A stretch of DNA of 64,000 bases from NCBI GenBank assembly GCA_000165345.1, contig CM000431.1, positions 960,001 through 1,024,000 on the forward strand, written 5' to 3'. Below, one piece after another: positions 2,289 to 50,800 of the stretch. Each line of letters begins with the position of its first letter. The first letter of the stretch is position 1. The notes under the pieces were generated by a model. It was not told where the DNA came from, did not search any database, and worked only from the letters and a program-made list of their open reading frames with translations. A program made the position numbers and the translations under genes.

Positions 2289-3734
2289 ATGAGGTTGCAA
2301 TCCAAACAAAAATATCAGTTTCCTGATTTGGAGATGGGAGAGCTGATGAATGAGTTGGACATGTTAGGATTTGAAGTTGGAAGTAACTTTTGGGAAAGTA
2401 TTAACCATGAAATAGCAGTAGAACTTTATATGAACTGCTTGTCAATAGCATTAGAGATAGATACAGAGGATATTCGACCGGAAGAGTTAATAGGACAACT
2501 TCCATCTTCAGCTGCTGGAATAATATCTGAAAATGGAAAGAGTCAAATTAAACCAATAGGAAATTTGAGATTTTTACGTTACTGTAAGATCCTTTGGGTA
2601 ATGATAGGAATCGATGATTTTAGTATGAATGACATTTATAGACCAACTCCAGATAGAATTTATTCGTTCTTATGTGGATTTGTGAATTTGATGCGTTTCA
2701 AAGAAGATCGTTGGATGACTTATAAGAATGAGTTTTATGAAATTGAGGAAATTTTGGACTCTGTAGACAAATCTAATGAACAGATTAAACAAAAAAAAGA
2801 AGATTTGAATAATATTAGAGTAAGATATAACGAACAAAGTGGTGAAATTGCAAATAGGAGAAGGGATAATCAGGAATACCAGGAAAAGATGAGATCTTTG
2901 CACGGAGAATTTTTGCAAAATCAACAAGAACTTAAGAGATTAACACAGTCAGAGCATGATTTAAAGGAGCAGCTTAAAGATGTTGAGTTTAGGATTACCA
3001 CTGGAAATCAAGATATACAAGATTTAAAGGATCAAGTTGTTCAGTCCCCAGAAAGACTCAGAAATACTCTGGAAGAATTGAATAAATCTTTAGAGAATGA
3101 AAGAAAACAAATTGATCAAATTAGTATCAAAAATAATGAACTAAAGGAAAGACAAAATCTATTGCAAAAGACTGAAAAGAGGCTTGGTAAGGCAAAGACA
3201 TTCCTTGAACAAACTATTAGCGGAATTAAAGATGCAAACAATATTAAGCAATCAATCAAAGAAATCGAGCATCATATTGAGAAGGATAAATGGACAATTG
3301 AGCAAACTACAGAAGAAGAAAGGTTGCTTTTGCAAACTGTGGAACAGATTTCACTAAGAATTCAAAATAATCAACAACACTATGAGAGTTTAATTGAGGA
3401 GGCACAGACTTTACTTAATCAAGAGAAACAAAAGTTTGAGCAAGGACAGGAATTCCTTGATGTTCAAAGCAGTGAAGCATTTTCATTTGAGCGACAAGCA
3501 GAATTAATGGAAAAAGAGATCCAGAATTTAAAAGTATCTCATGAAAAGGCAATTAATGCACTCAATATTCAGCATAGCCAACTACTAAATGTTCTTACCA
3601 ATTATAAGAAACACTTAATCAGCAAACTGAATGACATAAACTCGAAGTATAACTTAAAGCTATTAGATGAAACATCCAAGGAAAATTCAACAATAAACTC
3701 TATAGAAAACACTATTGTGATGCAGCACAACTAG
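2289..3734 (+). CDS. NUF2: Kinetochore protein Nuf2-like (NDC80 complex), CH-like N-terminus plus coiled coil
   Basis: Starts at an ATG. The N-terminus (YQFPDLEMGELMNELDMLGF...ELYMNCLSIAL; DDFSMNDIYRPTPDRIYSFLCGFVNLMRFKE) follows the Nuf2 pattern (FPxL..EIV...L; DFETADIL.P...R...FLSGIINFIHFRE). The rest is a long heptad-rich coiled coil including a SPERLRN motif like Nuf2 SPEKLKN, and the length (481 aa) matches. Confidence 0.55.
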   Translation: MRLQSKQKYQFPDLEMGELMNELDMLGFEVGSNFWESINHEIAVELYMNCLSIALEIDTEDIRPEELIGQLPSSAAGIISENGKSQIKPIGNLRFLRYCKILWVMIGIDDFSMNDIYRPTPDRIYSFLCGFVNLMRFKEDRWMTYKNEFYEIEEILDSVDKSNEQIKQKKEDLNNIRVRYNEQSGEIANRRRDNQEYQEKMRSLHGEFLQNQQELKRLTQSEHDLKEQLKDVEFRITTGNQDIQDLKDQVVQSPERLRNTLEELNKSLENERKQIDQISIKNNELKERQNLLQKTEKRLGKAKTFLEQTISGIKDANNIKQSIKEIEHHIEKDKWTIEQTTEEERLLLQTVEQISLRIQNNQQHYESLIEEAQTLLNQEKQKFEQGQEFLDVQSSEAFSFERQAELMEKEIQNLKVSHEKAINALNIQHSQLLNVLTNYKKHLISKLNDINSKYNLKLLDETSKENSTINSIENTIVMQHN

Positions 3735-5792: not shown

Positions 5793-8700
5793 ATGGACTT
5801 GAATGATGTGTATGATGAATTTGGTAATTATATTGTGAAAGATGATAACGACTCAGAAGGAAGCGCAGATTGGGTGGGATCCGAAGAAACTTCAGATCCA
5901 GAAGATAGCCACAACAATAAAGATGGTGAAATTTTTGATCATGCCCAAAAAGAAGAGTCTGAAGATTCAGGAAGTGATATTTTTTCTGAAAATGAGTGGC
6001 AAAAGCATAAAGGACAAGTCAAAATACTTAATAAACAAAGCATAAAAGACGAGGATCATGAAATGACTCAGGAAACTGATGATGATAATAAGATTGTGCA
6101 ATTTGAAGATAAAGAGTATTATCCAGACCCATCTGATGTATATGGTGATGACGTTGAAATATTGGTACAAGAGGAAGACCACCAACATATAGATGAACCT
6201 CTCATTTCTCCCTTAAAAGAAAACAAATTTGACTTAATTGAAAAGAACCTTAAGGAAATGGAAACAACATTTTCTTATGAATTCTTGAGAGATTTAATGG
6301 ATAATTTGGAATTTGTTAGAAATATCTGTTTTATTGGTGAAATTCATTCTGGAAAAACCACATTCTTAGATATGTTGATTAAAAATACTCATTCTTACAA
6401 AGGAGATAAGAAAAATATTCCTTTACCGGAGAGATATTGTGATTCAAGAAAAGATGAACAGGATAGAGGAATTAGTATTAAAGCTTCTCCAATATCTTTG
6501 GTACTACCAAACTCTATGGATAAATCTTTCTTATTCAATATTTTAGATACCCCTGGTCATGTTAACTTTGTGGATGAAGCATGCATTTCAGTAAGAATTT
6601 CAGAAGGAGTTATACTTTTCTTGGACTGTGTTATTGGTTTAACTAAACAATTAGAAAGATTGCTTCATTATTGCTTATCAGAAGGGAAGAAGGTTGTTCT
6701 AGTAATTAATCAAATTGACAGACTTGTCTTAGAGTGTAGACTACCTCCATATGATGCTTATTTTAAACTTAAGCATTTAATCTCTGCAGTTAATAACTCT
6801 ATTTTGGAATTTGCATCTATTCATGGATTTAATACTGATGAAACTAGAAATTTATTATTTGGTCCAGAAAGAGGTAATGTTGGATTTGCATCTGGTAGAT
6901 ATAACTTTTTCTTCACTTTAAATTCATTTGCTAGAAAGTATTTAAAACATAATGGTATTACCAATAACTGTATTCTGATTGAAAAATCTCAACAATTATC
7001 TTTCAGATTATGGGGAGATTATTATTTTAATAAAGAAAATAATTCATTTGAAACAGACTCAAATGTTTCTCAAGATAGATCTTTTGTAGAATTTATCTTA
7101 AATCCAATATATAAGTTACTTGGATATACGGTATCGGAAGAAGATGATAAATTATCAAGCTTTTTGAAGACGGTTGGAATATATCTGACAAAGAAAGAAC
7201 TTAAATTAAATGTTAAGGAACGTCTTGAAATTGTATGTAAACGTTTCTTTGGAAATTCTGCCTCATTTACTGACTTTATCACAAAAAATATCCCAAATCC
7301 TATTCAAAGTGCTAGTGATAATGTTGAGAGAATATATACTGGGCCAATTAATGATAGAATATCATCATTTATGAGAAAATATGAAAGAAATAATTGTCCT
7401 TTAGTTGTTTTTATTATAAAACAATTCCACTCTGAAGATATGGAATCATTTTACTCATTTGGAAAGATATTTTGTGGGACTTTATCAAAAGGTGATCGTG
7501 TTAAAGTTCTAGGTGAATCTTTTTCCAAAGATGATCCTGAGGATTTTACTACGAGATATATTGATAATCTTTGGATCTTACAAAGTAGGTATAAAGTAGA
7601 AGTTACAAGTGTACCTGCAGGAAATTGGGTACTAATTTCAGGTCTTGGAAGCTCTGTAACAAAACCATGTACATTAATTGGACATAATTCATTTATTAAG
7701 GATGATGAAATATATCCTTTACGTAATATTAGGCTTTTGAATAAGAGTGTAATAAAGTTAGCTCTTGAACCACATAATCCAGCAGATTTACCAAAAATGC
7801 TTGAAGGGTTAAAAAGTATTTCAAAAGCTTACACATGTTCAGTGACAAAAGTAGAGGAGAATGGAGAACATGTTATGTTTGGTACAGGAGAATTACAGAT
7901 GGATTGTATGATGCATGATTTAAGATGTTTATATGGAAATTTGGATGTAAAAGTTTCAGATCCAATGGTACATTTTTGTGAGACTGTTTTAGAGAAATCA
8001 GTAGTGAAATGTTTTGGAGATTCAACTAATGGATTGAATAGACTTTATATTACATCAGAACCTTTAGATCGAGGTATTTCAGATGAATTGGAGAATGGTA
8101 TAATGAAAGTTTCAATTTCAGATACTAAAGATCCAAAATATTATGGTAATTTATTAGCAGAGAAATATGGTTGGGATAAGCTTGCAGTAAAGTCATTATG
8201 GGCATTTGGACCAGATCCTAGCATAGGAAGTAATGTTTTATTGGATGATACTTCTTCTATAACAGTTGATAAAAAACTTTTATATGATGTTAAGGATGAT
8301 ATAATTCAAGGATTTAACTGGGCAGTTAAAGAAGGTCCTTTACTTGAAGAGCCAATAAGAAATGTAAAATTTAAGATACTTGATGTAAACTTATCTTCTG
8401 ATAAAGTTAGTAGGGGGACAGGGCAAATAGTTCCAGCATCTAGAAGAGCTTGTTACACATCGATGTTTTTAGCATCTCCAAAGATTTTGGAACCAATTAG
8501 TCTAGTAGAGATAATATGCCCATCAGGTTTGGATGAATTTATTAATAATATAGTATCAAAAAGAAGAGGCCATGCAGGCAAGGAAATTCCAATTCCTGCT
8601 TCACCATTAGTTACAATACTAGCATTTGTTCCAGCAATAGAAACCTTTGGATTTGAAACAGATTTAAGAATTCATACAAGCGGACAAGCATTTTGTACAA

Positions 8701-8900
8701 GTTGTTTCGACCACTGGGCAATAGTTCCAGGTAATCCATTGGATAGGAATATTTCATTAAGACTTTTAGAGAAAGCTCCTATTCCACATTTAGCTAGAGA
8801 TTTTCTTCTTAAAACAAGAAGAAGAAAAGGTCTAAGTGATGATGTTAATATTCAAAACTTTATCACTTGTCCAGAACTTATTAAAGCTTTGAATTATTAA
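5793..8900 (+). CDS. SNU114: U5 snRNP 116 kDa GTPase Snu114/EFTUD2 (EF-2-like)
   Basis: The N-terminal YDEFGNYI motif and acidic domain are characteristic of Snu114. The G domain has GKTTFLDML, DTPGHVNFVDE and INQIDRL. EF-2 domains II-V are conserved throughout (LWGDYYFN, SFVEFILNPIYK, PAGNWVLI, KLALEPHNPADLPKMLEGLK, GEHVMFGTGELQMDCMMHDLR, AFGPD, GQIVPASRR, FLLKTRRRKGLSDDV). Confidence 0.88.
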   Translation: MDLNDVYDEFGNYIVKDDNDSEGSADWVGSEETSDPEDSHNNKDGEIFDHAQKEESEDSGSDIFSENEWQKHKGQVKILNKQSIKDEDHEMTQETDDDNKIVQFEDKEYYPDPSDVYGDDVEILVQEEDHQHIDEPLISPLKENKFDLIEKNLKEMETTFSYEFLRDLMDNLEFVRNICFIGEIHSGKTTFLDMLIKNTHSYKGDKKNIPLPERYCDSRKDEQDRGISIKASPISLVLPNSMDKSFLFNILDTPGHVNFVDEACISVRISEGVILFLDCVIGLTKQLERLLHYCLSEGKKVVLVINQIDRLVLECRLPPYDAYFKLKHLISAVNNSILEFASIHGFNTDETRNLLFGPERGNVGFASGRYNFFFTLNSFARKYLKHNGITNNCILIEKSQQLSFRLWGDYYFNKENNSFETDSNVSQDRSFVEFILNPIYKLLGYTVSEEDDKLSSFLKTVGIYLTKKELKLNVKERLEIVCKRFFGNSASFTDFITKNIPNPIQSASDNVERIYTGPINDRISSFMRKYERNNCPLVVFIIKQFHSEDMESFYSFGKIFCGTLSKGDRVKVLGESFSKDDPEDFTTRYIDNLWILQSRYKVEVTSVPAGNWVLISGLGSSVTKPCTLIGHNSFIKDDEIYPLRNIRLLNKSVIKLALEPHNPADLPKMLEGLKSISKAYTCSVTKVEENGEHVMFGTGELQMDCMMHDLRCLYGNLDVKVSDPMVHFCETVLEKSVVKCFGDSTNGLNRLYITSEPLDRGISDELENGIMKVSISDTKDPKYYGNLLAEKYGWDKLAVKSLWAFGPDPSIGSNVLLDDTSSITVDKKLLYDVKDDIIQGFNWAVKEGPLLEEPIRNVKFKILDVNLSSDKVSRGTGQIVPASRRACYTSMFLASPKILEPISLVEIICPSGLDEFINNIVSKRRGHAGKEIPIPASPLVTILAFVPAIETFGFETDLRIHTSGQAFCTSCFDHWAIVPGNPLDRNISLRLLEKAPIPHLARDFLLKTRRRKGLSDDVNIQNFITCPELIKALNY

Positions 8901-10360: not shown

Positions 10361-13300
10361 ATGAATTTAACCAATGAGAATATTTCAAACCAGGGCCAGG
10401 AGATTTCAAGGAATGGGAATTTTGAGATAATTGATAATGGGAAATCCGAAGATAATAGTAAGGAAATAATTCTTGAGAAATGTAGGGTAAAAGTTTCTTC
10501 AGATGGAGTTTATGAATCATTGCCAGTTGAAAGAAAAAGTATCGATGCTAAATCCAGTGAGAAGGCAAGCGATAAAATTCAAGGGGATACTGTTTTTGAA
10601 GTTTTACCTAGATCAGAGTCTAATGCAGATGCAAGTTATAATAAAGCTGGTGACTTTGTTAATGATATCGGGATTTTTGAGTCATTACCAAAATCAACTT
10701 CTGATGCTGATTATAAGTATAATGAAAGGGTGGATATTACACAAGATAGGATTGTTTTTGAAGTATTACCACGCTCTGATAATATTGTTCACTATGATAA
10801 TGACACCAGTAATGAATCTTCTATTAAAGTAAATGAAATGATTAAAAAGAAGGAGTCAGAATTGAATAATATTTTAAAAGAGCAGAAAATTGATGGAGAT
10901 ATTACTAGTAGAAATGGGAATATAGAAAATGATCCTACTTTAGGTTTAAGTATTTATAACGAAGAATCAGTTTCTCCTCCATCTGAAACTTCGATGACCA
11001 TTTTTGAGAATTTACCAATTAAGAAAGAAAATATCGATATCGATAACGAGTTTCAATCAAATTCTATTTTATCAGACAATAATATAATTGAGAATCATCA
11101 ATCAATTTTTGAAACTGCAAACTTGTCCAGATCAAATAGTTCTTCTCATATTTCTAGCTTAAAGGATGGTGAGGAAGCTGAAAGACTAACGAGTAATGAA
11201 GTGAGTGAGCATAGTGAAATTAGTAATGATGAATGCGAAAAAGATCTAAAAAGTAATTTTGAGCTTAATAATCAATTAATTACTGATTTTAATCAAGATG
11301 TAAAAACTCAAGATAAAAAAGAGCTTTCACCACAAGTTGAGAGCAAAGCAAATCTTAATATTGTTGTAAATAGTGAGAAGTCGGTCTTTGAGGTAGTTCC
11401 ATCTGAACAATCAAGAGCTGATATTGGGTATAATTCCAAAATACCACTAAGTTTTGATGAAAGGACGGTTTTTGAATCAAAGCCTGTAGCGAATTCAAAT
11501 GCAGATGTTAGCTATAATTCAAAGGTTGGTATCACAAAAGCAGAAGAAAGGTCAGTATTTGAGTCATGTCCAATTACTGATTCGAAGGCAGATGTTAGTT
11601 ATAATTCAAAATTTCAGCCAAGAAAAGACGAAAAAATTATATTTGAATCGAATCCAATTGCTAACTCGAATGCAGATGTTGGATACAATACAAAAATTGG
11701 CTTAGAAAGACAGGAAAAGTCAACTTACGAATCAATCCCTACTATCGGGGTAGTAGCAGATGTTAGCTACAAATCCAAAGCACAAACTAATTCTGGAAAT
11801 GAAAAGTCTATTTTTGAATCTGTTCCAATTTCCAATTCAATAGCTGATGTCAGTTATAATTCTAAATCACAGCCTATTAAAGAAGAAAAGGTTGTATTTG
11901 AATCAATTCCATCAGAAAATTGTAAGATAGATGTGAGTTATAATTCCAAGTTGGATTTGAAAGGACAGGAAAAGTCAGTATTTGAATCCAATCCTATGAT
12001 GACTTCCAATGCTGATGTAGGTTACAATTCAAAGCCAGAAATAAATTTGAATGAGAAATCCGTCTTTGAGTCGGTTCCATCCAATATTTCAAAAGCCGAT
12101 GTGAGTTATAACTCGAAAATAACTAATACTTCTGAGAAGTCAATCTTTGAATCGGAGCCAATAAAAAATGTTAATATAGACGTGAGTTATAATTCCAAGT
12201 TGGATTTGAAAGGACAGGAAAAGTCAGTATTTGAATCCAATCCTATGATGACTTCCAATGCTGATGTAGGTTACAATTCAAAGCCAGAAATAAATTTGAA
12301 TGAGAAATCCGTCTTTGAGTCGGTTCCAACCAATATTTCAAAAGCTGATGTGAGCTACAACTCTGTAGTAGCCAATACTTCTGAGAAGACCATTTTTGAG
12401 TCAGAACCAAGAAGGAACTCAGTGGCGGATGTAAGCTATAACTCCAGTTTGATTCCTATTTCTAAGGATGAAAAGACTGTATTTGAATCCAATCCAAATG
12501 TTGATTCAAAGGCAGATGTTAGTTATAATTCTAAAATAGAATTAAAAAAAGACGAAAAGTTTGTATTTGAGTCAAATCCTAATGTTGATTCTAATGCAGA
12601 TGTTAGTTATAATTCAAAGCTTCAGCCAAGAAAAGACGAAAAATTCATATTTGAATCTAATACGACAGTTAACTCTAAGGCAGATGTTAGTTATAATTCA
12701 AAATCTGAACCTAAAATGAACGAGAAGTCCGTATTTGAGTCCAGTCCAATTCTTAGCTCAGTTGCAGATGTTGGGTACAACACCAAAGGAGTTGGTATGA
12801 CTCAAGAAAAATCTGTCTACGAATCAGTTCCAATTAGTAAATCTAAAATAGATGCTGGCTATGATACAAAGTTGGACTTTACTCATGAAAATAATAAAAC
12901 TATATTTGAATCAAACCCATCTTGTGAATCTATTGCGGATGTTGGATATAATTCAAAGATTGAAACAAGAACAGAAGAAAAATCAGTTTATGAGTCAAAT
13001 TACGATAAAGTTTCTAAGGCTGATGCTAGATATAATTCAGATTCAAGCCAAATCTATCCTCCAGAGAAGATGGTATATGAATCAACTCCTGTTGTTGGAT
13101 TAGCTGTGGATGCAAGGTTTGCAGATCAAAACAATACAAACGAAGAGAAGCAAACAGTTTTTGTATCTCTTCCAAGGTCTGAGTCAGTTTTTGATGCAAG
13201 CTACTCGTTAAATAATGAATATAGGCAGGAAAAGACAATATTTGAGTCAGTACCCAATACAAAAGGGATCAGAATAGATGCAAGATCCAGTGATACCTCT

Positions 13301-13384
13301 GAAATAATGAATTTTCAGTCTAAGACAGTTTTTGAATCAGTACCCAAACAGTCTTATGCTGATGCAAAAAGCGGGAATATATAG
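10361..13384 (+). CDS. Large tandem-repeat protein with ~28 copies of a 27-28-aa VFESxPxxxSxADVSYNSK unit; no signal peptide
   Basis: ATG at 10361. The first ~330 aa are acidic/Asn-rich with a few degenerate repeats. From about aa 335 there are contiguous repeats with consensus EKSVFESxPxxxSxADVSYNSKxxxxx, degenerating toward the C-terminus. I recognise no homolog. Confidence 0.6.
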   Translation: MNLTNENISNQGQEISRNGNFEIIDNGKSEDNSKEIILEKCRVKVSSDGVYESLPVERKSIDAKSSEKASDKIQGDTVFEVLPRSESNADASYNKAGDFVNDIGIFESLPKSTSDADYKYNERVDITQDRIVFEVLPRSDNIVHYDNDTSNESSIKVNEMIKKKESELNNILKEQKIDGDITSRNGNIENDPTLGLSIYNEESVSPPSETSMTIFENLPIKKENIDIDNEFQSNSILSDNNIIENHQSIFETANLSRSNSSSHISSLKDGEEAERLTSNEVSEHSEISNDECEKDLKSNFELNNQLITDFNQDVKTQDKKELSPQVESKANLNIVVNSEKSVFEVVPSEQSRADIGYNSKIPLSFDERTVFESKPVANSNADVSYNSKVGITKAEERSVFESCPITDSKADVSYNSKFQPRKDEKIIFESNPIANSNADVGYNTKIGLERQEKSTYESIPTIGVVADVSYKSKAQTNSGNEKSIFESVPISNSIADVSYNSKSQPIKEEKVVFESIPSENCKIDVSYNSKLDLKGQEKSVFESNPMMTSNADVGYNSKPEINLNEKSVFESVPSNISKADVSYNSKITNTSEKSIFESEPIKNVNIDVSYNSKLDLKGQEKSVFESNPMMTSNADVGYNSKPEINLNEKSVFESVPTNISKADVSYNSVVANTSEKTIFESEPRRNSVADVSYNSSLIPISKDEKTVFESNPNVDSKADVSYNSKIELKKDEKFVFESNPNVDSNADVSYNSKLQPRKDEKFIFESNTTVNSKADVSYNSKSEPKMNEKSVFESSPILSSVADVGYNTKGVGMTQEKSVYESVPISKSKIDAGYDTKLDFTHENNKTIFESNPSCESIADVGYNSKIETRTEEKSVYESNYDKVSKADARYNSDSSQIYPPEKMVYESTPVVGLAVDARFADQNNTNEEKQTVFVSLPRSESVFDASYSLNNEYRQEKTIFESVPNTKGIRIDARSSDTSEIMNFQSKTVFESVPKQSYADAKSGNI
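11370..13380 (+). repeat. Coding tandem repeat array (unit ~81-84 bp) of the VFES-repeat gene, including a near-perfect duplication 11933-12079 vs 12182-12328
   Basis: A 147-bp stretch (gtgagttataattccaagttggatttgaaaggacaggaaaagtcagtatttgaatccaatcctatgatgacttccaatgctgatgtaggttacaattcaaagccagaaataaatttgaatgagaaatccgtctttgagtcggttcca) occurs twice, exactly identical and 249 bp apart. Flanking similarity extends further. Confidence 0.8.
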
Positions 13385-13451: not shown

Positions 13452-15605
13452 CTATTCCTCAGTTTTTTTGTCTTGGGGTGTGGGGTAAGTAACTTGTGTA
13501 ATAACCTTTGGACTATCATCAGTTTTGAGATTCTCCGATTGAATTACTTGTTGCATAGCTTGGGAAGCTTCAAAACCGAGTCTAACTGGTTCCTTATTTA
13601 CATGAAGGTAGAGTAGATAGGATGAGGGGGTAGATTCTGGATGTTCTTTTGATTCTTCTGTTTGATTTTCATCTTTGCAATCTTCCACAGTAGCTTGAGT
13701 AATTTTGTTTACAGCATGTACTGTTGTATAGTCTAATTTACCTTGAGAATCAATATTTGGCCAAACAACTGCGAAACCTTTCTTAGGTTTTATTTTGATT
13801 CCAGCATAAGGGAAGTCTAATTCTCCTCCATTTTCAACATCAGAAAGGAAAACTGAAATTGTATGAGTTCTATTATCTCCATCATGGTGTTCTTTAATGT
13901 AATCATTGACGGAATATTTGTGTACCAGGATTGGCTCCATATAAAGATTGCTAGAGTCTACAAGAATTCCAAGCCTATTTTCAATCTGTCTAATAAGAGG
14001 AGTTTCTTCTGGTTGAATACAGGCAGTTGAAGATCTACAAAAATCCTCATCTTCATCTTGTTCATTTTTATAATCTTGATCATCTGTTTTTTCATCTTTA
14101 ATTTCATCAGTTTCGGATTTCTTGCTTTCTTTTTTGGCTATTGATATCTTTGAATCCTCTAGTCTATCTTGGACAAGGGAAATAATCTCATCACATTCAT
14201 CTTGGTTTAGAGCATTTGGGATAATAAATATCTTAGGATTAACCTTACTGGCAACTATTCTCTGTAAAAGAGCAGGTTTCTTGTTTTTACTAATATCAAT
14301 TTCGGAATTGTTATTTAATGGCTCGGTACCGATTGTCGCTTGAATACCATGTTGTCTTAATAATTGAGCTGCAGCATTTAGTTGACTAGCGATAAATTGT
14401 TGTTGCTGTTGTTTGATCATTGCCTCAATCTTTGACATGTCAGTGGTTGGCTGCATAATATTTGGTTGAATAGACTCTGGAATAACGGCATTTCCCATAT
14501 TTGGAACAGCTCCAGCTCCAAGATTCACTCCTGGAATATTCATTCCTGAGATATTCAACCCTGCAGCAGTGCCAATTCCTGGAATACCACCAAGAGATCC
14601 AAGAGCTGCACTTGAAATCTGATTTGCAGTCTGTGAAGACGAACCTACATCTTTTGTTGGAATTAAATTGGGGTTTCCCAAGAATGCAGCAAGCTGAGGA
14701 GTTAGCTGAGATTGTGTAGCTGAAGCAGCTCCAACTGGTAAGTTAGCGCTTCCAGGCATTACACCAGTTACTCCTGTTGGAGCCCCTAAATTCCCTGGGA
14801 TTCCTGAAATTCCTGGAATTCCAGCAAGAGAACCCAAGGAATGCCCGGCATTGGTAGCCTGGCCCAAGTTTTGTGGAGCAACAGAAGCAGAAGCAGAGGA
14901 TGGGGATTGCTTGCTCTCAGCTGAATTAGTATTGGAAGCGGTCTGAGTATTATTTTGAAGTTCGGATAGAGCCAAAGCAATCTTTTGTTTCTGCATCCAA
15001 GTAGCCAAGTTCAAATCTTGTCCTTGAATACCACACAAATTAGGTACTCCTGCCTGCATATTTGGAAATTGAATTGGCTGTAAAGTTGGTTTCTGAACAT
15101 TTAAGCCCAAAGAAGCAAGGACATTGGGGTCTAACGCTCCAACTGGTGGAATGTTATAACTTGTGGTTGTAGAGCTTGGAATCATATTATTCAAATTTAA
15201 GGTTGCTCCCAAGGTCTGAGCTGGAATTCCAGAACTAAGACCAAGTCCAAGACTTGGAGTATTCGCTATACCGGGAGGTATCTGGTCTTTTGAAGCATTA
15301 ATTTGCATTCTCATCATAAATTGTTGTAATTGTTCCATATTCATTGCAGACATTGGGAATTGAGATGTGGGGATGTTTGTTGCTGTAACTCCACTTCCTG
15401 GCTTTCCTACTTGAGTATTATCAGCTGTAATTCCTGTTCCACTAGTTTGCCCTTGTAATAAATTATTAGTTTCTAATTTTGAAGTATCTGATTCTGAAAT
15501 AGGTACCATATTAATATAGGTACCTAATAACTTAGGTTCTGGCGGTGTGACTCCTCTAATAACATTCTTTGTTTCTTCATTAACGCTTGAATTATTTTCA
15601 GACAT
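13452..15605 (-). CDS. Prolyl 4-hydroxylase / 2OG-Fe(II) oxygenase domain protein with long G/P/Q/S/N-rich low-complexity N-terminal region
   Basis: The C-terminal ~200 aa carry P4Hc-type motifs: HHDGD (HxD), VFLSDVENGGELDFP, KKGFAVVWPN and a distal His in TTVHAVNKIT. The N-terminal ~450 aa are low complexity (GIPGISGIPGNLGAP...). There is no signal peptide. The ATG is at 15605. Confidence 0.6.
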   Translation of the reverse strand: MSENNSSVNEETKNVIRGVTPPEPKLLGTYINMVPISESDTSKLETNNLLQGQTSGTGITADNTQVGKPGSGVTATNIPTSQFPMSAMNMEQLQQFMMRMQINASKDQIPPGIANTPSLGLGLSSGIPAQTLGATLNLNNMIPSSTTTSYNIPPVGALDPNVLASLGLNVQKPTLQPIQFPNMQAGVPNLCGIQGQDLNLATWMQKQKIALALSELQNNTQTASNTNSAESKQSPSSASASVAPQNLGQATNAGHSLGSLAGIPGISGIPGNLGAPTGVTGVMPGSANLPVGAASATQSQLTPQLAAFLGNPNLIPTKDVGSSSQTANQISSAALGSLGGIPGIGTAAGLNISGMNIPGVNLGAGAVPNMGNAVIPESIQPNIMQPTTDMSKIEAMIKQQQQQFIASQLNAAAQLLRQHGIQATIGTEPLNNNSEIDISKNKKPALLQRIVASKVNPKIFIIPNALNQDECDEIISLVQDRLEDSKISIAKKESKKSETDEIKDEKTDDQDYKNEQDEDEDFCRSSTACIQPEETPLIRQIENRLGILVDSSNLYMEPILVHKYSVNDYIKEHHDGDNRTHTISVFLSDVENGGELDFPYAGIKIKPKKGFAVVWPNIDSQGKLDYTTVHAVNKITQATVEDCKDENQTEESKEHPESTPSSYLLYLHVNKEPVRLGFEASQAMQQVIQSENLKTDDSPKVITQVTYPTPQDKKTEE

Positions 15606-15852: not shown

Positions 15853-15864
15853 TTGGCGCCTTTT
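15853..15864. promoter_or_regulatory. E2F-like site TTGGCGCCTTTT about 250 bp upstream of the P4H-domain gene
   Basis: GC box within AT-rich DNA immediately 5' of the minus-strand gene start. Confidence 0.4.
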
Positions 15865-16033: not shown

Positions 16034-17593
16034 TTATCTAACAAATTGTCTATTGTCATTTTTATCTCTAACACCATATGGATTAGAAGCAGAAAATTTA
16101 TGGCCGGATTTAAAATATGGATTGCTACTTTTATTCTTAGATTTGTTACCTGCATTTCTAGAAGCTTTTCCACCCGATTTTAAATTTAAGTCAACTTTAG
16201 GAGGCGTACTGAACCCAAAACTGAATGCAATTTGCTGTAAATCAAGAGAATATACATTAAATGCATCTTTGAGTGCATGAGAAGCATAAGAATGTAAATA
16301 TGCTCTGTAGGCATCTCTAGCTGAACAGTGGAGATGATAGTTCTTTTCAATAAGCCTTTCGAGCTGATTTTGAACATTAGCAACTTTATTTTTTCCAAAA
16401 ACATATTCATTTAATGGAATATTCATCTTTTTAAGATATTGAAGGAAGGCAATTTCTTCAGGAAGAAGGAATAATAAGGCTTTTCCAGTACCACCAGCTC
16501 CTCTTGCGGTTCTTCCAACTCTATGAATATATTCTCTAGGATCATCAGGAGGGTCATATTGAACAATCCAATCAACATTTGGAATATCTAAACCCCTTGC
16601 AGCAACATCAGTACATAATAATAAACCTTTATCAGCTGAACAAAAATCATAATAAGTTTGCATTCTAGAAGTTTGTTTCTTCTTTCCATGTATTGATGAG
16701 CAAGTTAAATCTACATAATTAAATAATTCTTCATGAAATTTGGTTGACATACAGCTACTAAAGAAGACCATAACTTTTTTATCTCTATTCTTCTTAAGAA
16801 ATGTATATAATAGCAAGAATCTTTGATTAGCTTGAGCTATAACATATCCTTGCTCAAGTCCTGAAACTGTTGCAATAGAAGAAGTATTTTTAGATTCAAC
16901 AAGAACTGGATTTTTAAGTGAAAGTCTAACAAGATCAGCAACTTTAGTTGTCTGAGTAGCAGAAAAAAGAGAAGTTTGTCTTTCTTTTGGAAGTAATTTA
17001 ATAATTTGATTCATTTCTTCTTCAAAACCAATTTCTAGAATTCGATCAGCTTCATCTATAACTAGATTCAATAAATTTTTAAATAAGAATTGTTTTGTAT
17101 TCTGTAAGTGATCTAAAAGTCTTCCAGGAGTAGCCACTAATATATTAACACCTTTAGAAAGCTTTTCTGCTTCAGTTCTCCTATTTGCTCCTCCCATAAC
17201 CAAACCATGAGTTTGTGGTAAATATTTACAAAGCTCTCTGCATACTTCATAAATTTGGAGACTTAATTCTCTAGTTGGTGAAATGACAATAACACCAGTT
17301 CCATTTCTAGGTAAGAATTCTACATTATATAGTAGATTTGCCGCAGGAATTAAGAACGCTAAAGTCTTACCTGAACCAGTCTTTGCAGCTCCTAAAACAT
17401 CCTTACCATTTAAAATTCGAGGAATTGCTTTTGCTTGAATTTCTGTCATAGTTTCCATCCCCATTTCTTTAAGGGCTTTTTTTAGTTGGTCACAAATATT
17501 TGATGATTCAAATTTCACATCACTAAAATATTCTGATGACTTTTCATTTTCATTTGTATTGTTTTCGTTCTTTTTTTGTTCCTCCCCAGACAT
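16034..17593 (-). CDS. HAS1: ATP-dependent DEAD-box RNA helicase, Has1/DDX18 subfamily
   Basis: Has the Q motif (F..L.L......[14 protein letters not shown]), motif [40 protein letters not shown], and [34 protein letters not shown]. The C-terminal basic tail is typical of Has1. Confidence 0.88.
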
Positions 17594-21925: not shown

Positions 21926-22825
21926 CTAATTCTGAGTCAGTAAAGTTAGGAATTTAATAGCTTGACTACATACAAATGTATCAGGTATTTTTTCTGGTGG
22001 TATAACTAAAAATTCTTCATTATTATCTTTAACAAAACCACATGCCATTAAAATCTCTATTGATCCTTGGTATTTGAGTACTTTTGACTCAAAAGTTGGG
22101 TTCTTTAAACGAATTCTCTTATACTTTTCTTCATAAGGATGACTATGAACATTGTTAATATATGTTTTAAGTAGATTAAAGCATGTCATTATACCCTGTA
22201 AATCTTTTGATCTATATTCTTTATTCATTCGATTACAATAATATGCAACCTTTTCTTTATTTCCTTTTGGAACTTCGTTTGTTTTTTCTTCAGGATAAGG
22301 ACATCCAAATCTTTCTTCCCATTCTTCCTTAAGTAAGCTTAATTGACGTTGTCTTTCAACTTCATGAGCATTCTTTTCTTTAGCTGCTTTTTCAATATTT
22401 CGAATCCTTTCTGCTTCTTCAAGCTTTCTTTGAGCTTCTAATAATTGCTTTGTAGAAGCTATTCTACGTTTTTCTTTCTCAATTTCTTCTTCTTTTTCTC
22501 TTTGTATACGTAATTCTCTAGCTCTTCTTTGCAATTCTTTTGCTTTTTCAAGAGCTTCTTCATCTGTTAATTTGGGTGCCCCTGGAATGCTATCAGAACC
22601 AGAAATTTCAATTATAGGTTCCTTAATAGAATCATCCTTAGAATTCTCTTCAAGCCAAGTTACTGCATTTTCTAGTCCTTTATTTCTAGTAAAGAAAATG
22701 GCTTTTTCTGATTCTACTTGGCCAAAACCCATTTCCATTAAAGAGTTAAGTAGGTTTTTATCAACGTAATTTTTTATATCATCACAATTATCACTAATAT
22801 TTGTTGGTTTTTCAGTATCTGTCAT
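21926..22825 (-). CDS. UBA-domain and PUB-domain protein with central Glu/Arg/Lys coiled coil (p97/Cdc48-adaptor-like)
   Basis: The N-terminus has a UBA-like fold (LLNSLMEMGFGQVESEKAIFFTRNKGLENAVTWL). The C-terminus matches the PUB signature NP.EEKY.RIRLKNPTFESKVL...GSIEILMACGF. Confidence 0.5.
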   Translation of the reverse strand: MTDTEKPTNISDNCDDIKNYVDKNLLNSLMEMGFGQVESEKAIFFTRNKGLENAVTWLEENSKDDSIKEPIIEISGSDSIPGAPKLTDEEALEKAKELQRRARELRIQREKEEEIEKEKRRIASTKQLLEAQRKLEEAERIRNIEKAAKEKNAHEVERQRQLSLLKEEWEERFGCPYPEEKTNEVPKGNKEKVAYYCNRMNKEYRSKDLQGIMTCFNLLKTYINNVHSHPYEEKYKRIRLKNPTFESKVLKYQGSIEILMACGFVKDNNEEFLVIPPEKIPDTFVCSQAIKFLTLLTQN

Positions 22826-23644: not shown

Positions 23645-26089
23645 GATAATTATTTAGAAGAAAATGTATCAAATTTGAATAAAAATGGCTGGTCTGGAAG
23701 GAAGATACAAAAATCAGTTTTACCAAATAAAAGAAGATCTATTTCTATTGGACAAAGTAGAAATGATGACTCTGAAACTACTAGACTTTCAAGAACATCT
23801 ATCAATTTGAAGGGACAAATAGATCAAAATAAATCATTTTTTTCAAAAAGCTCGTCAGATCAACTACCAAATGAAGAACTTGATAAGCTTTGTAATCAAT
23901 GCTTAAATCTACTTAGACAAAATAAAATATCTTCAAAGAATGCATTTGATATCCTTCTAATTGATCACTTAAATGATATTGTAAATGTACAAGATTCTCA
24001 AAATGAAGAAGAAAAATCAAATATAATTAAAAAAGAAAACAAAGAGAATGTTTCTAAAATTAACAATAATTCAAAAGAAAAGAATATTGAAATAGATAAA
24101 TCAAAGATGAATAAAGGAGAATTTCATAATGAGATGATAAGCTCAGAAACAACCTCTCAGGATACTAATTTTCAAAAATTCCAAAGAGCTGCAGTAACAT
24201 TGGAAGCATCAGCTAGAATATATGGATATAGAGTAGATTCGACATTTGATAATGCTTATAGGATTTTATCTAACATAAAAAGTGGACAAATTTTAGCTAG
24301 AAATGATTCAGATTGTGAAGAAGATGAAAAAGATCAGCAAGAAGATGATTCTTCTGGTAATAGATTAGAAGAGTCAAGTAAGAAGAAAAAATATAAAAGA
24401 AACTTGATTTTTTCTGGAGAAAATAATACTATAGTGAGCAATCCAGAATCTATTACATTAAAGGAGTTTGAAAAAACTAAAGAAATGAGTGAGAAGCCAT
24501 TTTTTGTTAATTTTTTGAATGATAAGGTTAAAATAGATAATATTAGATTTGGATTAGACTATAATAATATTGGTTCAATTTCATCAATGCTAATGAATAA
24601 CTTGGAATTGAAAGATTCATTATATAATAGAGACAAATCAGCTTCACTTACATTTAATATATCAGGAAGGAATAATTTGATAAATAGTAATAACTTTTCA
24701 TGTTCAACAATTTGTAAAGATGAATTATTCAAAGTAAATAAGAAAACATTGGATTTACTTCTTCCAAATCCAAATGAAAATTTTGGCAAGGATATTAGTA
24801 ATATTGTTTGCCCAAATTTATCAAGGATTTTTGATTCAATTCAAGAAATTACAGAGAATTATGGTGATATTAAACAAGTTAAAGATTCAACTTCTATTGA
24901 GGAATATCAACTAAATGAACAAGTAATTAGGAGATTTTTTGAATTTACTGATCCATCATTTGAGAATGATTCATTAGAATCTGAGAATAACTTTTTGAAG
25001 AAACATAGTCAGAGCATGGATGATATTGAATATGTGAATGAAAATCAAGATCTTGAATTTTTGAATAATTTTGAAGAGGAGGAGAAGGTGGAGCTTAATA
25101 TGGGATTACAAGATTTTCAAATGCATGTTGAGAGAGTTATTAAAGATTTGAATAAGACTGAATCTTCTGAACATATTTTAGAGGATTTAGATCAAAACAA
25201 AGATATTGAGATTGAAAAAAAGTCTGGTGAATTTAAGTTCAGTAAGATTGGCGATGTTCTTGATTTTCTAGCTAAAAAATCAACCAAAAGTTTAGAATTT
25301 TTCAACGAAAGAAAAAAAGGGGAAAAAAGTAATAGTGTATTTGGACAAAAGTTAAGATCAAAATCAGAAAATACGAATTTTGAAATTCCCTCTCCATTAT
25401 TAACCAATAATATATTTAATGGTATTGAATGGATGAATAATTTACCAAAGATTAAACAAACTCAAATAAACTCAAGTAGATCAAAAACTAAAAACTTATC
25501 AAGTAACAAGTTATTTGTTGGAAAGAATAGTACTACTTCAATATTTAACTATAACTTGAACCACTTATTTTGTCTGGCAAATCTTACTGGAGTTAAAATA
25601 AACTTAAGATCAATACATAAAGCTGAGAATTCAGAAGAAACTGCTGGTCAAAATTACATTACAAATGATATACTAATAAAGACAAACAACTCACAACATA
25701 TTAATAAGAATATCTTAAATAATTCTATGAGTGAACAAACAGATCTTATGGTAAATCATTGCGAAATTGAAGATCTTATGCAAGTTGAAAGTTATCTCCA
25801 ACCATTAAGCCAAGAGGAATTCTCTATAGATAATGGCAAAGATATTCTTATTCAAAGTAAATTATTATTACCATTTGATGAAGATAAGATTTCCGATACA
25901 GATATCCTTCTTGAAAAAAGTTCAAAGTCTCTTCATGTTAGAGATGAATACAACAGCTCATTAAAATTCTCCAAGTCATCAAATCATGTTGATATCGATT
26001 TAATCAAGAATGTTTTGAAGAATTCGATTCAGATTCTACAATCAGACGATTCCAATTCTTTGACATTATTTAATATTATAAATCAATCA
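23645..26089 (+). CDS. BRN1: Condensin complex subunit H/Barren, exon 2
   Basis: Contains kleisin N-terminal motifs: CNQCLNLLRQNKISSKNAFDILLIDHL (compare human [26 protein letters not shown]) and FQKFQRAAVTLEASARIYGYRVDSTFDNAYRILSNI (compare [34 protein letters not shown]). The rest is Asn-rich low complexity. Confidence 0.6.
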
Positions 26090-26194
26090 GTAAGTTTTTT
26101 AAATAGTAATTTGTGGAATATACTTTCTGTATTTATTTCGCAAATTGTTATTATATATTAATTCAAACTTGACCACTTTCATTCTTTTTTATAG
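26090..26194 (+). other. BRN1: Intron 2 of condensin H gene (105 nt, GTAAGT...TTTTTTATAG)
   Basis: Phase-0 GTAAGT donor at 26090 and acceptor AG at 26193-26194. Only the spliced product carries the conserved kleisin C-terminal winged-helix motif. Confidence 0.55.
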
Positions 26195-30604: not shown

Positions 30605-32134
30605 ATGAATAACTATGGGATTTTTGAGTTAAATGAACATGCTGATAGGGTTGTAGTTTATCTTTATCTGGATAAAGATTTATTTATACAATTTGGCTCT
30701 TATATGGATTCTTTTAATACACTTGATTCTAAAGATAAATGTTTAGAAACAAGTATAATATTTAATAATGGCAAATTATGGTTAGAGGTAAAGGGAACTT
30801 TAGATAAACAAAATTCGAATTCTAAGTTTAGTGGATCTATGGAAGACATAATAATTTTAAATAATAATCAGTTTAATTTAGAGAAGCAATTATCATTTTC
30901 AAATTTTAAAATTTTTTTAAAACTTCCAAATCGTCTTCAAGTACAGGATGTTTTATCTGTTAGTTATTACCATGATAATATTCCAAGCAAAATTTCCACT
31001 GGATCTGAAATTAAAACTCAAGAGGCTACTCCCATCTTATTTTCAAGAATTGTTTTAAGTTTGAAAAATAAACTTTCTCTACTTACCTTATCTACTTTAG
31101 TTACTGATCAAAGCTGGGACCAGCCAAATGAATTAACTTTTATTGAAAAAGATGAGTCTGTTTGTCTGGATCTCGAAACATCACTGTTAAATCATTTACT
31201 AATCAAAAAACCTGATGATCATGAAGATTTAACAAATAAATTAAATATAAACTGTAAAAAATGTGGTTTTTTGCTTTCAGAATACTATGAAAATTGGGTA
31301 ACTGCTCCACTTCCAAGTGAAATGTTTATTCATGGTTCAGAAATGCTTACATGTGATAACTGTCATCCTGTACTTTCATCAAATTCTTCAACTTATTGCC
31401 ATCATGATTTTGGAGCAAGACCAAATTGGATATGCTTAGGAAACTATCATATTTCTATTCATACAAATAACGCTTCACTTGATCATCTACTTTTTCAGAA
31501 AGAGAGTGATTCAATTCTAGACCAAACTATAGAGACTTTTTTCATTAATGATATCAACAATATTTACTATTCTGGAAAAAAAGTTCTGTATTCATTATTT
31601 TGTCAAAACTGTGGTGATAAACTCGGTTGGAAAAATTATCAAGATAATCACATCAATTTTTGGAAATCAAAAGTTCTACTTAATCTTATCTCTAATCAAA
31701 AAGTTGTCTCAACTCTTTTTGCAAACTATTCCATTGCTTCTCTAGCTATACATTATATTGAAAAGTACTTAAAACAATACTCAAAGTTATATATTATAAA
31801 TTCAAACGAAATGGGGGATATCAAAAATAAAGACGCCATTTCTATATATATTATTAAAAAGAATGTTATTAAACTAAAGACTCAGCTCTTTATTGGCTGT
31901 TTATTTGAACATATTGAGTCGCAAGCTCAACTATATAATAAAAGATCTATTATATATAATTCTATCAAAATCTCCTATAATTTAGATACTGGTGACGTCA
32001 TTAAGTCTAATGAACACCAAATTAAACTTGAAAAAGAACAATTCTGTCAAATTGTGAGAAGTATTCAAGAAAATACTTTATTTAACAAGAATTCATATCT
32101 TAGTATTCCTATTTTATCCAGTGATTTAGTATGA
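30605..32134 (+). CDS. Hypothetical protein with paired CxxC motifs (possible Yippee/Mis18-like zinc-binding fold)
   Basis: 509 aa. Contains CKKCGFLL...(30 aa)...CDNCHPVL and later CQNCGDKLGWKNY (C..C...LGW is the Yippee-like signature). Otherwise unrecognised. Confidence 0.45.
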   Translation: MNNYGIFELNEHADRVVVYLYLDKDLFIQFGSYMDSFNTLDSKDKCLETSIIFNNGKLWLEVKGTLDKQNSNSKFSGSMEDIIILNNNQFNLEKQLSFSNFKIFLKLPNRLQVQDVLSVSYYHDNIPSKISTGSEIKTQEATPILFSRIVLSLKNKLSLLTLSTLVTDQSWDQPNELTFIEKDESVCLDLETSLLNHLLIKKPDDHEDLTNKLNINCKKCGFLLSEYYENWVTAPLPSEMFIHGSEMLTCDNCHPVLSSNSSTYCHHDFGARPNWICLGNYHISIHTNNASLDHLLFQKESDSILDQTIETFFINDINNIYYSGKKVLYSLFCQNCGDKLGWKNYQDNHINFWKSKVLLNLISNQKVVSTLFANYSIASLAIHYIEKYLKQYSKLYIINSNEMGDIKNKDAISIYIIKKNVIKLKTQLFIGCLFEHIESQAQLYNKRSIIYNSIKISYNLDTGDVIKSNEHQIKLEKEQFCQIVRSIQENTLFNKNSYLSIPILSSDLV

Positions 32135-47866: not shown

Positions 47867-50800
47867 TTAGTTTATTGATTGAAATTCAAAAGGTTGAAAT
47901 GAACGCCAATTTAAATTTGTATTTCTTCTGATATTAATTTTTTGAATAATATTCTGCAATTTAGTCCAACGGTAAGGACACAAAATCATAGGTTTTCCTC
48001 TAATCAAATGCTTATCCTCTTCTCCATATTCGTCCACATAAAGAGTAGAAAATTCACATGCCCTTGCACCATACAAAAATTGTTTATCCAATTCAATCCA
48101 ATTAAATAAATTGTTATTGGTTTCATTCTTTGTTGAAGTAATATCAATTCTAAATGATAGTATAATTGATGAAGAAACATGTAAGAAAAAAGATAATCCT
48201 TTTCCACATTTTGCAATATGATCTCTAATTGGTATTGACCTTAAAGATATATTTAAACCTGAACCAAATGGAATGGAGTATGATAATATATTTTTATTCC
48301 CAGTTTTTTCTGTTTCTCTTGAATAACAGTAGAAATAAGAATCCAAAATTGAAGATGACAAATTTGTACTAGTTTCAGTCTCATTACAACAACTATATTC
48401 CGTACATAATATACTTCCACATGAAATACAAATTAGTAAGTTATTAATATTATTAGAATATCTTCTACTCCAATGCTTTATTGGATTTGATAAAAGCTTG
48501 TTATAAAGATTGTGAAACATTTTAGGGGGTATTATTGTTGATTGATTAAAACCATTATATATAATAATATTTTGGCCACTTTCATTGATATTCAAAAACT
48601 TCTTTCCCAAACCTAGAAATGAACTCTTAAATATTTCAAACTCTTCAATGCTCAGACTTTTATAAAATGAATTAATATTACTATTAAATAGTGGTCTCTT
48701 TGAATTAACCATAATGTCATTAACAACTGTTACTTCCAAACAAGTTAAAGGAATTATTGCCTTCTTCTTTGAAATCAACTTTATGAAAAGGTTCTTTTCT
48801 AGCATTATAGTTAATAAAGAGTTCATCATTCCACTACTTTGGTTTATAAAGTTTTTATGTTTATCAATATCAGTATCATTATCAGTATTAATATTAAACT
48901 CTGTTAAAATTATCCAAGCAATCTCTAGTATATTTGTATTCATACAAAATCTACTAGAAATACATTGTAATAGTATAGAGATTTGTTCATCTAAGCTATT
49001 ATCCTCTTCATTTCCATTTATTCTTGTATTATTATTAACTGAATTTTCTATTTTCTTGTTTTTTTCTTTCATATAAATATTTTGAAATCTAACTATCAAC
49101 TTTAGCCAAACTATTATTCCAAGATTTACAATATCTTTAAGTTTTTTAATATCTCCAAGTTTAAATTCATCCATATTACACTCATCTTCTTGATTTTGTT
49201 TATACTTTTTAAATTTGTTCTTAGTATTTAAATAACTTGAATTTGTATTTAATATAAAATTCGGATATTTACTCAAATAAAATTCTCTCTTACTTTCATT
49301 TGATAATTTATTTATAGAATTCTTAACTTTGAAAGAATATATAATATCGCATTTATTCTTTTTCTCAGAAACTGAGATATCGCTATTTACTGGATTAATT
49401 TGGATTGGTAAAGTTCCAAAAATATTAACATTAATTCTTGAATCTGATATATTATTTATCTTCTGAGCTTTATACTCAATCTCTTCAGAACTTAAATCTA
49501 ATTTCTTATATAAGTGAAATCCATTTCCATAAATCAATTCCTGGAAAAAAGACATTGCCTCATTTTCATTTGATTGGTCTTCTTTCTGGTTATCATTTTC
49601 CTCATCAATATGAGATTTTCTGCATTTATTCAAATTTAATATAGCTTGGATTATTGGATTTCTTATTTTAGATACTTGTTCATCTTCATCCCATTCGGGG
49701 TTCCAAAATGTCCAAACAATTGAAAACACTTCCAAAACAAACATCATCAATAAAATATACATAACTCTCAAATCCCCTTGTTCTAAAGTCTCATAACCTT
49801 GACTTTCTCTTACAGAACTATCTCTAATACTATTATTTGAGTTATTATATTTATTGTTTGTTTTACTATAAAAATTATCAAAATGAGTGTCATTTTCTTT
49901 GACTTTTTGCTCCTTTAATGTTCTTGTACTATCAATCAGAATTATTAAATTTATAAGAATCTGAAATCTAGCTGAAGGCGATTGAAGCGAAATATAGTTC
50001 CAAATATCAATCTTATTTTCATCTCTAAGTATCTGAATTAAGTTAAAAATCATTGAAGTAGCCATGCACGGAAAATTATTAATAATACTTTTCAAAGATT
50101 TAATAACAATTTCATACATTAAATTTCTCGAAGAAGAAAATAAATTGGTTGAAGCAAATACACTCATATCATTTTCATAACATGAAATTGTATCAACTAT
50201 AATATTGTCACTTATAATCTTAGTTAAGAAACCTATTGGATTAATACTAGGAATTCCATTTATAGACAAATTAATGCTTGGAATATTGAAAGGAAGTAAA
50301 TTCTCAAATAAAGTCAATATTGAAAGAATTTGTTCAAGTATTGGAATACTTTCAACATCAATTTCTAAATTACCATTACAACTTCCTTCATAATAATCAC
50401 CAATCATATCACTTATTTCGTATTTTGTTTGGAGATCCAATAATAAATCCAAAATATCTATCAATTGATCATCTTTACAAGATTCAAAGTTATTTTGTAC
50501 TTCGTGACAAATATCCATCATTAATTCCTCATTCTTGAAGTACTTGAATGGAAGTATAATGTTGGAGAATGTATTGCAGTATGGGCATGTTAAGTTAGTT
50601 AAATGATAAATTTCTTTATTAATGTCGTATTTTCTAACTCTACCAGTAAATTTTGATCCAGTATTATCGGGTATAGAAGATAATATATGAACTGAGTTAT
50701 TAGAATTAGGCAAATTAAGCTCTTTAAAAGTCTCACCATTTTCTCTAATATTCATTTGTCTTACACTAACTCCTACTTTGTTTTTGTGGTAAGTTAATGG

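Follow-up and report, generated by a model that had tools for sequence, protein, structure and literature searches.

A collagen-type prolyl 4-hydroxylase fold of Cryptosporidium, without a signal peptide, keeps its iron triad and has lost conserved residues of the 2-oxoglutarate site

Collagen-type prolyl 4-hydroxylases (P4Hs) are textbook 2-oxoglutarate (2OG) enzymes of the secretory pathway; what, then, is a protein of this fold that carries no signal peptide and has exchanged conserved residues around the 2OG carboxylate? The question is raised by a gene of Cryptosporidium parvum on the minus strand (13452–15605) of the stretch analysed here (assembly GCA_000165345.1, contig CM000431.1, positions 960,001 to 1,024,000; 64 kb, ~30% G+C, hereafter the window). 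The gene is a single unbroken open reading frame (ORF) of 717 codons plus stop, and its product is 100% the same as C. parvum Iowa II EAK88983.1 (CPATCC_001417). It bears the existing annotation "prolyl 4-hydroxylase alpha subunit" and is functionally uncharacterised. An earlier note on this DNA, made from its letters alone, had proposed a P4Hc-type oxygenase domain behind a long low-complexity region, and had compared it with the cytoplasmic oxygen sensor PhyA. What we find, and what is new here, is a conserved loss of the 2OG subsite in an otherwise intact, constrained and apparently non-secreted collagen-type P4H.

As judged from sequence, the C-terminal domain is a double-stranded β-helix of the collagen/plant (P4Hc) type with an intact iron triad. 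The Pfam profile PF13640 scores 26.4 bits against the full protein, just below its gathering cut-off of 27 bits, and 29 bits against the domain alone, with matches in 9/9 orthologues. This match stops at profile position 86 of 98, short of strand β-VIII; the PDB profile alignments likewise all end before that strand, which points to genuine divergence there. The best PDB sequence match is the Bacillus anthracis P4H (E 3e-11 from the single sequence, 4e-17 from the profile), and the PDB sequence searches return collagen-type P4Hs only, the others being PBCV-1 vCPH, human C-P4H alpha-2 and Chlamydomonas P4H. Solved P4Hs are also the nearest neighbours of the β-helix by fold, and the closest relatives by sequence and fold are not PHD2, PhyA or PPHD. 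An AlphaFold (AF2) model of residues 440–717 has a mean predicted local distance difference test score (pLDDT) of 78, rising above 90 in the core, with low values in two variable acidic inserts, the second of which is missing from C. andersoni, C. muris and C. serpentis. The Pfam, PDB and model evidence thus bears out the P4Hc-type assignment of the earlier note and shows its PhyA analogy to be wrong.

Orthologues are spread over the genus; identity is 96% in C. hominis and falls to 40% (572 aa) in C. andersoni, C. muris and C. serpentis. The gene order L27A (ribosomal)–DEAD-box helicase–P4H is the same in C. meleagridis and C. andersoni, which we count as support for orthology. Neither a signal peptide nor a transmembrane segment was found in the 717-aa protein (highest 19-residue Kyte–Doolittle mean 1.14), and every orthologue, whatever the Cryptosporidium species, begins with MSEN. 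With a conserved start and no hydrophobic segment, the missing signal peptide noted earlier is real.

We compared the active site across 20 full-length Cryptosporidium sequences (21 in all) and 158 non-Cryptosporidium relatives with a complete triad. The iron centre is fully preserved: H573, D575 and H630, which lie in the HHDGD and TTVHAVNK segments singled out by the earlier note as HxD and distal His, align to the iron ligands of the B. anthracis enzyme and do not vary among 12 aligned orthologues or in any Cryptosporidium sequence. R579, the NRxxT arginine that contacts the backbone of the substrate proline, and T582 are also invariant in Cryptosporidium. The co-substrate pocket is another matter. 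In C-P4H-II the buried 2OG carboxylate is held by Tyr421, Thr467 and Lys511 (PMC9676403), and in P4H-TM by Tyr319, Thr375 and Lys451, with Tyr365 supporting the Thr; the counterpart of Tyr365 in HIF-type enzymes touches the co-substrate directly (PMC7948501). The spacings of these positions agree exactly with those of solved P4Hs (Tyr at His-9, Thr at His-34, as in Thr467/His501 of C-P4H-II, and Lys at His+10). Only the tyrosine survives: Y564, nine residues before the first His, is Tyr in 21/21 Cryptosporidium sequences and 156/158 relatives. The Thr of the GGxT motif (L596) is Leu in 21/21 Cryptosporidium sequences, whereas 152/158 relatives have Thr; the β-VIII lysine (S662) is Lys or Arg in 0/20 full-length Cryptosporidium sequences, which carry Ser, Ala or Leu, against 155/158 relatives; and the supporting Tyr (F586) is Phe throughout Cryptosporidium and Tyr in 96% of relatives. 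The gastric species, whose loop lacks the insert (HAVNIVNEDTALYLLYLH), give an unambiguous view of the missing β-VIII lysine. The position next to the substrate (Tyr325 of P4H-TM, Tyr140 of Cr-P4H) is Ile.

Other residues of this region could be thought to take over. The "downstream Lys" that the earlier note had seen in TTVHAVNK is K634, which stands at His+4, not His+10, and is Arg in C. felis and Ile or Met in the gastric species; it is therefore not the 2OG lysine, whose true position is S662. The lysines of acidic insert 2 are ruled out as substitute ligands in the same way, as the insert is variable and is missing in the gastric species. A further residue is H562, invariant in Cryptosporidium at a position that is Val in 71% of relatives; this histidine could be a replacement ligand for the 2OG pocket. 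K671 and R675, just past β-VIII, are invariant in Cryptosporidium as well.

Selection bears on whether these changes reflect decay. Measured against C. meleagridis, the ratio of non-synonymous to synonymous substitution rates (dN/dS) is 0.040 in the catalytic core, 0.174 in the acidic inserts and 0.176 over the whole gene. Purifying selection on the core is thus strong, and the pocket substitutions are fixed throughout the genus. Taken together, the low core ratio and the genus-wide fixation argue for a catalytic site that has been remodelled and still works, not one in decay.

The remodelling may be older than the genus. Searched exhaustively with a profile, 1.8 billion representative proteins yielded 3223 matches, the best outside Cryptosporidium being dinoflagellate/MMETSP, coccidian, Plasmodium and EukProt GHVP/GHVT proteins, an alveolate subfamily with the motif KEHHDG...R..T in common. 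The GHVP/GHVT transcripts we take to be from gregarine-like apicomplexans. A crude neighbour-joining tree places the Cryptosporidium clade beside four relatives, P0060, P0099, P0168 and P0154. In three of them (P0060, P0099 and P0154) a hydrophobic residue takes the place of the Thr; P0154, a eukaryotic protein of 445 aa from a JGI metagenome, is the sole relative found that resembles Cryptosporidium in combining loss of the β-VIII lysine, Val for Thr and an acidic insert downstream of the distal His. P0154 may mark a sister lineage, and these shared features are the reason why pocket remodelling may predate the genus.

Among the other relatives, the coccidian "2OG-Fe(II) oxygenase family proteins" (Toxoplasma XP_002368476.1, 967 aa; Neospora, Besnoitia and Cystoisospora) have a single P4H domain flanked by long low-complexity regions, and an N-terminal signal was not found in them; the Toxoplasma protein shares 32% identity with that of C. 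parvum over 177 aa, within the domain only (E 2e-31). A disordered region next to a P4H domain also occurs in P0099 and P0060. The earlier note had called the architecture unusual, which holds in that a low-complexity fusion is atypical for a class normally found in the lumen of the endoplasmic reticulum, though it is not unique, since coccidian and gregarine-like relatives share it. The dinoflagellate/MMETSP relatives P0040, P0041 and P0042 carry two to five tandem P4H domains per polypeptide; P0041 and P0042 each have one or more domains in which Arg or Val replaces the first iron His, and these proteins look like mixed arrays of active and degenerate domains. The Plasmodium relative is "prolyl 4-hydroxylase subunit alpha, putative" (XP_742006.2, from P. 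chabaudi), in which an Asn-rich insertion of ~130 residues separates the core strands from the distal His, with Lys kept at His+10.

The N-terminal half has a different character. Ser, Gly, Asn, Ala, Leu, Gln, Pro and Thr make up about three-quarters of residues 1–440, which include GIPGISGIPGNLGAP at 261–275, QQQQQ at 399–403 and a GIPGISGIPG string. The low complexity reported earlier is therefore present; it is not uniform, being interrupted by five islands with 76–96% conservation per 20-residue window, joined by free-evolving linkers of differing lengths. Against C. meleagridis, dN/dS is 0.037 in the islands and 0.51 in the linkers. A profile of the region found no homologue outside Cryptosporidium in a search of 5.8 billion proteins, one chance-level match in the PDB (E 0.1) and none in Pfam. 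This pattern would fit a disordered tether with short docking motifs. X-Pro-Gly in the GIPGISGIPG string could suggest a collagen-like self-substrate, a reading left unsupported by the finding that in 7/9 orthologues PG dipeptides show no enrichment against shuffled sequences (p 0.04–0.55). A PAM2-like reading of island 4 (LTPQLAAFLG) was set aside by eye, the consensus being mismatched at three key positions. In C. ryanae (P0010) the second N-terminal linker contains a (GATGF/GATGL)n tandem expansion of ~60 residues (alignment columns ~125–185); no other species has this FG-like repeat, which points to an origin in a single lineage.

How is such a protein to be read? We put the probability at roughly one in two that it combines a non-secreted collagen-type P4H fold and a functional metal centre with a rebuilt co-substrate pocket and partner-recruiting N-terminal motifs, and that it is probably an oxygenase and not a canonical 2OG enzyme. 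In the mechanism that we propose, the pocket for the distal 2OG carboxylate has been rebuilt in Cryptosporidium (Ser, Ala or Leu for Lys, Leu for Thr, Phe for Tyr, and a new invariant His), with the iron triad and the substrate-proline Arg retained by strong purifying selection. The domain would probably still act as an O2-dependent protein hydroxylase with non-canonical co-substrate binding, the remodelled pocket binding 2OG weakly or differently, or using another 2-oxo acid. The N-terminal half would serve as a flexible tether whose five conserved motifs, short and helical or linear, would probably bring in partners or substrates. Fold, residue pattern, conservation and relatives are observed; enzymatic activity, co-substrate, cellular location and the islands' role are inferred. 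Several points weigh against this reading. The AlphaFold domain model was built from 23 sequences only; the full-length model, from 12 orthologues, has a pLDDT of 32, which leaves the helices of islands 2, 3 and 5 weakly supported; the putative cytoplasmic or nuclear location has the missing signal peptide as its sole basis; and no functional study (biochemistry or localisation) of the gene or of any subfamily member was found in the searched literature. Finally, in the 1997 work of Myllyharju and Kivirikko, mutating the equivalent lysine (Lys493) in human collagen P4H reportedly kills activity.

That loss of the lysine alone should inactivate the human enzyme makes a catalytically dead protein a serious alternative, possible in our estimate if not probable: a P4H fold without co-substrate turnover, used as a proline-rich-peptide or metal-binding module that the islands turn into an adaptor. 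Of the four residues with which solved P4Hs contact or support the distal carboxylate, three are now non-polar or small, the substrate-proximal Tyr has gone, and there is precedent in another apicomplexan clade, the PHYb-like B4 group of Plasmodium, Cryptosporidium and ciliates, which is without one or more critical catalytic residues and has been proposed to be inactive or distinct in mechanism (Florimond et al. 2019; PMC6437050). A pseudo-enzyme sits poorly with a triad, Tyr and substrate Arg that do not vary between C. parvum at one end and C. andersoni and C. muris at the other, and with a core dN/dS of 0.04; the fixed pocket changes, a gained His among them, resemble remodelling, not drift. 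Inactivated enzymes do not, as a rule, retain their metal ligands. At the opposite pole, the protein might be an ordinary 2OG-dependent P4H whose distal carboxylate is held by substitutes, for example H562 or K671/R675, and other 2OG oxygenase families do have their basic residue on a different strand. The intact triad and Y564, the invariant, lineage-specific H562 on the same strand and the invariance of K671 and R675 all suit this idea, as does the Leu that HIF-type P4Hs tolerate at the Thr position. We nevertheless consider it unlikely: the HIF-type enzymes compensate with a β-VIII Arg and a Tyr (PMC7948501), both absent from Cryptosporidium, and the halt of every Pfam and PDB profile alignment before β-VIII bespeaks real divergence.

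A PhyA/EGLN-like cytoplasmic oxygen sensor, hydroxylating Skp1 or a similar target, appears highly improbable. The missing signal peptide and the P4H fold with its iron triad would suit it, and PhyA-type cytoplasmic P4Hs of protists do sense O2 (PMC6437050; PMC6939170); it is opposed by the lack of any Arg or Lys on β-VIII and by the published PhyA clade, which in the supplement of Florimond et al. 2019 contains no Cryptosporidium sequence (PMC6437050). The Cryptosporidium entries used in that study, C. andersoni OII77012.1 and C. parvum XM_627176 (PMC6437050), belong to a different gene. Identity of our gene with the PHYb-like B4 gene is ruled out, the C. andersoni orthologue here being OII76644.1 and not OII77012.1; the Cp alignment row in Fig. 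S2 of Florimond et al. 2019 is not present in the EAK88983.1 protein. The earlier suggestion of a divergent O2-sensing hydroxylase therefore survives in part: ligand alignment finds the HxD...H triad present and the 2OG-binding basic residue missing, which makes "divergent" right and a standard O2-sensing P4H doubtful. The C. parvum protein is probably neither a standard hydroxylase nor a PhyA-type oxygen sensor.

The reading that we prefer, an oxygenase with a rebuilt pocket, has a bolder form, which we offer as tentative and on balance doubtful: in Cryptosporidium, and possibly in gregarine-like relatives, a P4H may have turned into a 2OG-independent iron oxygenase that uses a different 2-oxo acid (pyruvate, for example) or none, its targets being cytosolic or nuclear proteins recruited by the motifs. 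If true, this would be protein hydroxylation uncoupled from central carbon metabolism. The intestinal Cryptosporidium species are not known to have a tricarboxylic acid (TCA) cycle, which makes independence from 2OG attractive; the gastric species keep the cycle yet share the pocket substitutions, so the argument from the TCA cycle is speculation only.

Coordinates of the gene and of the features of its product are collected below.

Table 1. Features of the P4H gene and its product. Positions are those of the window.
Feature	Residues	Position	Strand	Remarks
Complete single-exon coding sequence	717 aa + stop	13452..15605	-	EAK88983.1 / CPATCC_001417
N-terminal region	1-439	14289..15605	-	low-complexity, mostly disordered (predicted); no signal peptide or known domain
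Island 1	1-40	15486..15605	-	MSEN...PPEPKLLGTYINMVPI
Island 2	79-100	15306..15371	-	PTSQFPMSAMNMEQLQQFMMRM; helix predicted, low-confidence model
Island 3	150-218	14952..15158	-	invariant PNLCGIQGQD motif; predicted helix 197-219
Island 4	300-318	14652..14708	-	QLTPQLAAFLGNPNLIPTK
Island 5	385-425	14331..14453	-	Q5 run, invariant AAAQLLRQHGI motif, predicted long helix 390-418
Collagen/plant-type P4H (P4Hc, PF13640) double-stranded β-helix domain	450-690	13536..14258	-	Pfam, PDB searches, AF2
Variable acidic/lysine-rich insert 1	491-520	14046..14135	-	between N-terminal helix and R(S/T)S motif; low pLDDT
Cryptosporidium-specific invariant His	H562	13920..13922	-	two residues before Y564, same strand
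2OG-carboxylate Tyr, kept	Y564	13914..13916	-	Tyr421 C-P4H-II, Tyr319 P4H-TM
HxD iron ligands	H573-H574-D575	13881..13889	-	invariant; align to solved P4H ligands
Conserved Tyr position	F586	13848..13850	-	Tyr365 P4H-TM; supports/contacts co-substrate
2OG-carboxylate Thr position	L596	13818..13820	-	Thr467 C-P4H-II, Thr375 P4H-TM
Distal iron-ligand His	H630	13716..13718	-	invariant; aligns to solved P4H ligand
Variable acidic insert 2	638-660	13626..13694	-	between distal-His strand and β-VIII; low pLDDT
2OG-binding Lys position, strand β-VIII	S662	13620..13622	-	Lys511 C-P4H-II, Lys451 P4H-TM

Around the gene, a palindromic TTGGCGCC box lies at 15853–15860, ~250 bp upstream of the start codon and within a 428-bp intergenic region; it resembles the E2F-like GGCGCC motif that is reported to precede many Cryptosporidium genes. 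The upstream neighbour (16034–17593, minus strand) encodes a 519-aa DEAD-box helicase with an SPB4-type C-terminal extension, which we read as a nucleolar HAS1/DDX18-type protein. The convergent neighbour (10361–13384, plus strand; 1007 aa) has ~23 degenerate tandem repeats of 28 aa at residues ~370–1000, with the pattern ...EKSVFES.P...S.ADVSYNSK...; its sole Pfam match, to RseA_C over 23 residues (E 2.8e-15), appears to be spurious, and its C. meleagridis orthologue has 924 aa and no Pfam family. Elsewhere the window holds a very large ORF (47867–56503, minus strand; 2878 aa) and housekeeping genes for the Nuf2 kinetochore protein (2289–3734), the Snu114/EFTUD2 spliceosomal GTPase (5793–8900), a UBA-PUB protein (21926–22825), condensin subunit 2 (23675–26161) and a HECT_2 E2-binding protein (30605–32134), these five having no relation to hydroxyproline glycosylation. 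Among 12 scanned ORFs of the window, no Pfam match to a glycosyltransferase family was obtained.

Cryptosporidium has no described PhyA and essentially no described means of sensing oxygen or metabolites. A non-secreted P4H that has its iron centre under strong selection and has lost the Lys, Thr and Tyr would represent either a new route of chemistry or a clean reuse of an oxygenase fold as a binding module. Together with its uncharacterised Toxoplasma and Plasmodium relatives, the gene forms a third apicomplexan P4H lineage beside PHYa and PHYb, and in calling it "prolyl 4-hydroxylase alpha subunit" the annotation claims more than the sequence bears out.

Set against known systems, the protein resembles each in some respects. 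PhyA/EGLN and PHYb, as cytoplasmic protist proteins of the P4H fold, bear a likeness to it, and HIF-type enzymes also have Leu at the Thr position (PMC7948501); these differ in their β-VIII Arg and in the Tyr that touches 2OG, where Cryptosporidium has no Lys or Arg and F586. The alveolate "EHHDG" subfamily, whose full motif is (F/Y)xEHHDG...R..T...GGET.FP...H-x9-K, shares (F/Y)KEHHDG with it, and the coccidian and gregarine-like members also share long low-complexity flanks, the coccidian ones being without an N-terminal signal; unlike Cryptosporidium, the coccidian, Plasmodium and dinoflagellate relatives have both the His+10 Lys and the GGET Thr, and their disordered regions have no detectable sequence likeness to the Cryptosporidium N-terminus. 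With the collagen/plant-type P4Hs (Cr-P4H-1, PBCV-1 vCPH, B. anthracis P4H, human C-P4H alpha and P4H-TM) it has in common the HxD...H triad, the Tyr at His-9, the NRxxT Arg and the N-terminal helix motif PxIxxxxNxLxxxECDxxI. It departs from them in having no signal peptide or membrane anchor (typical of the eukaryotic members, though not strictly defining), in the replaced His+10 Lys and GGxT Thr, in the Phe for the supporting Tyr and in its two acidic inserts, and a 440-aa disordered N-terminus stands where they have PSB, ShK or EF domains.

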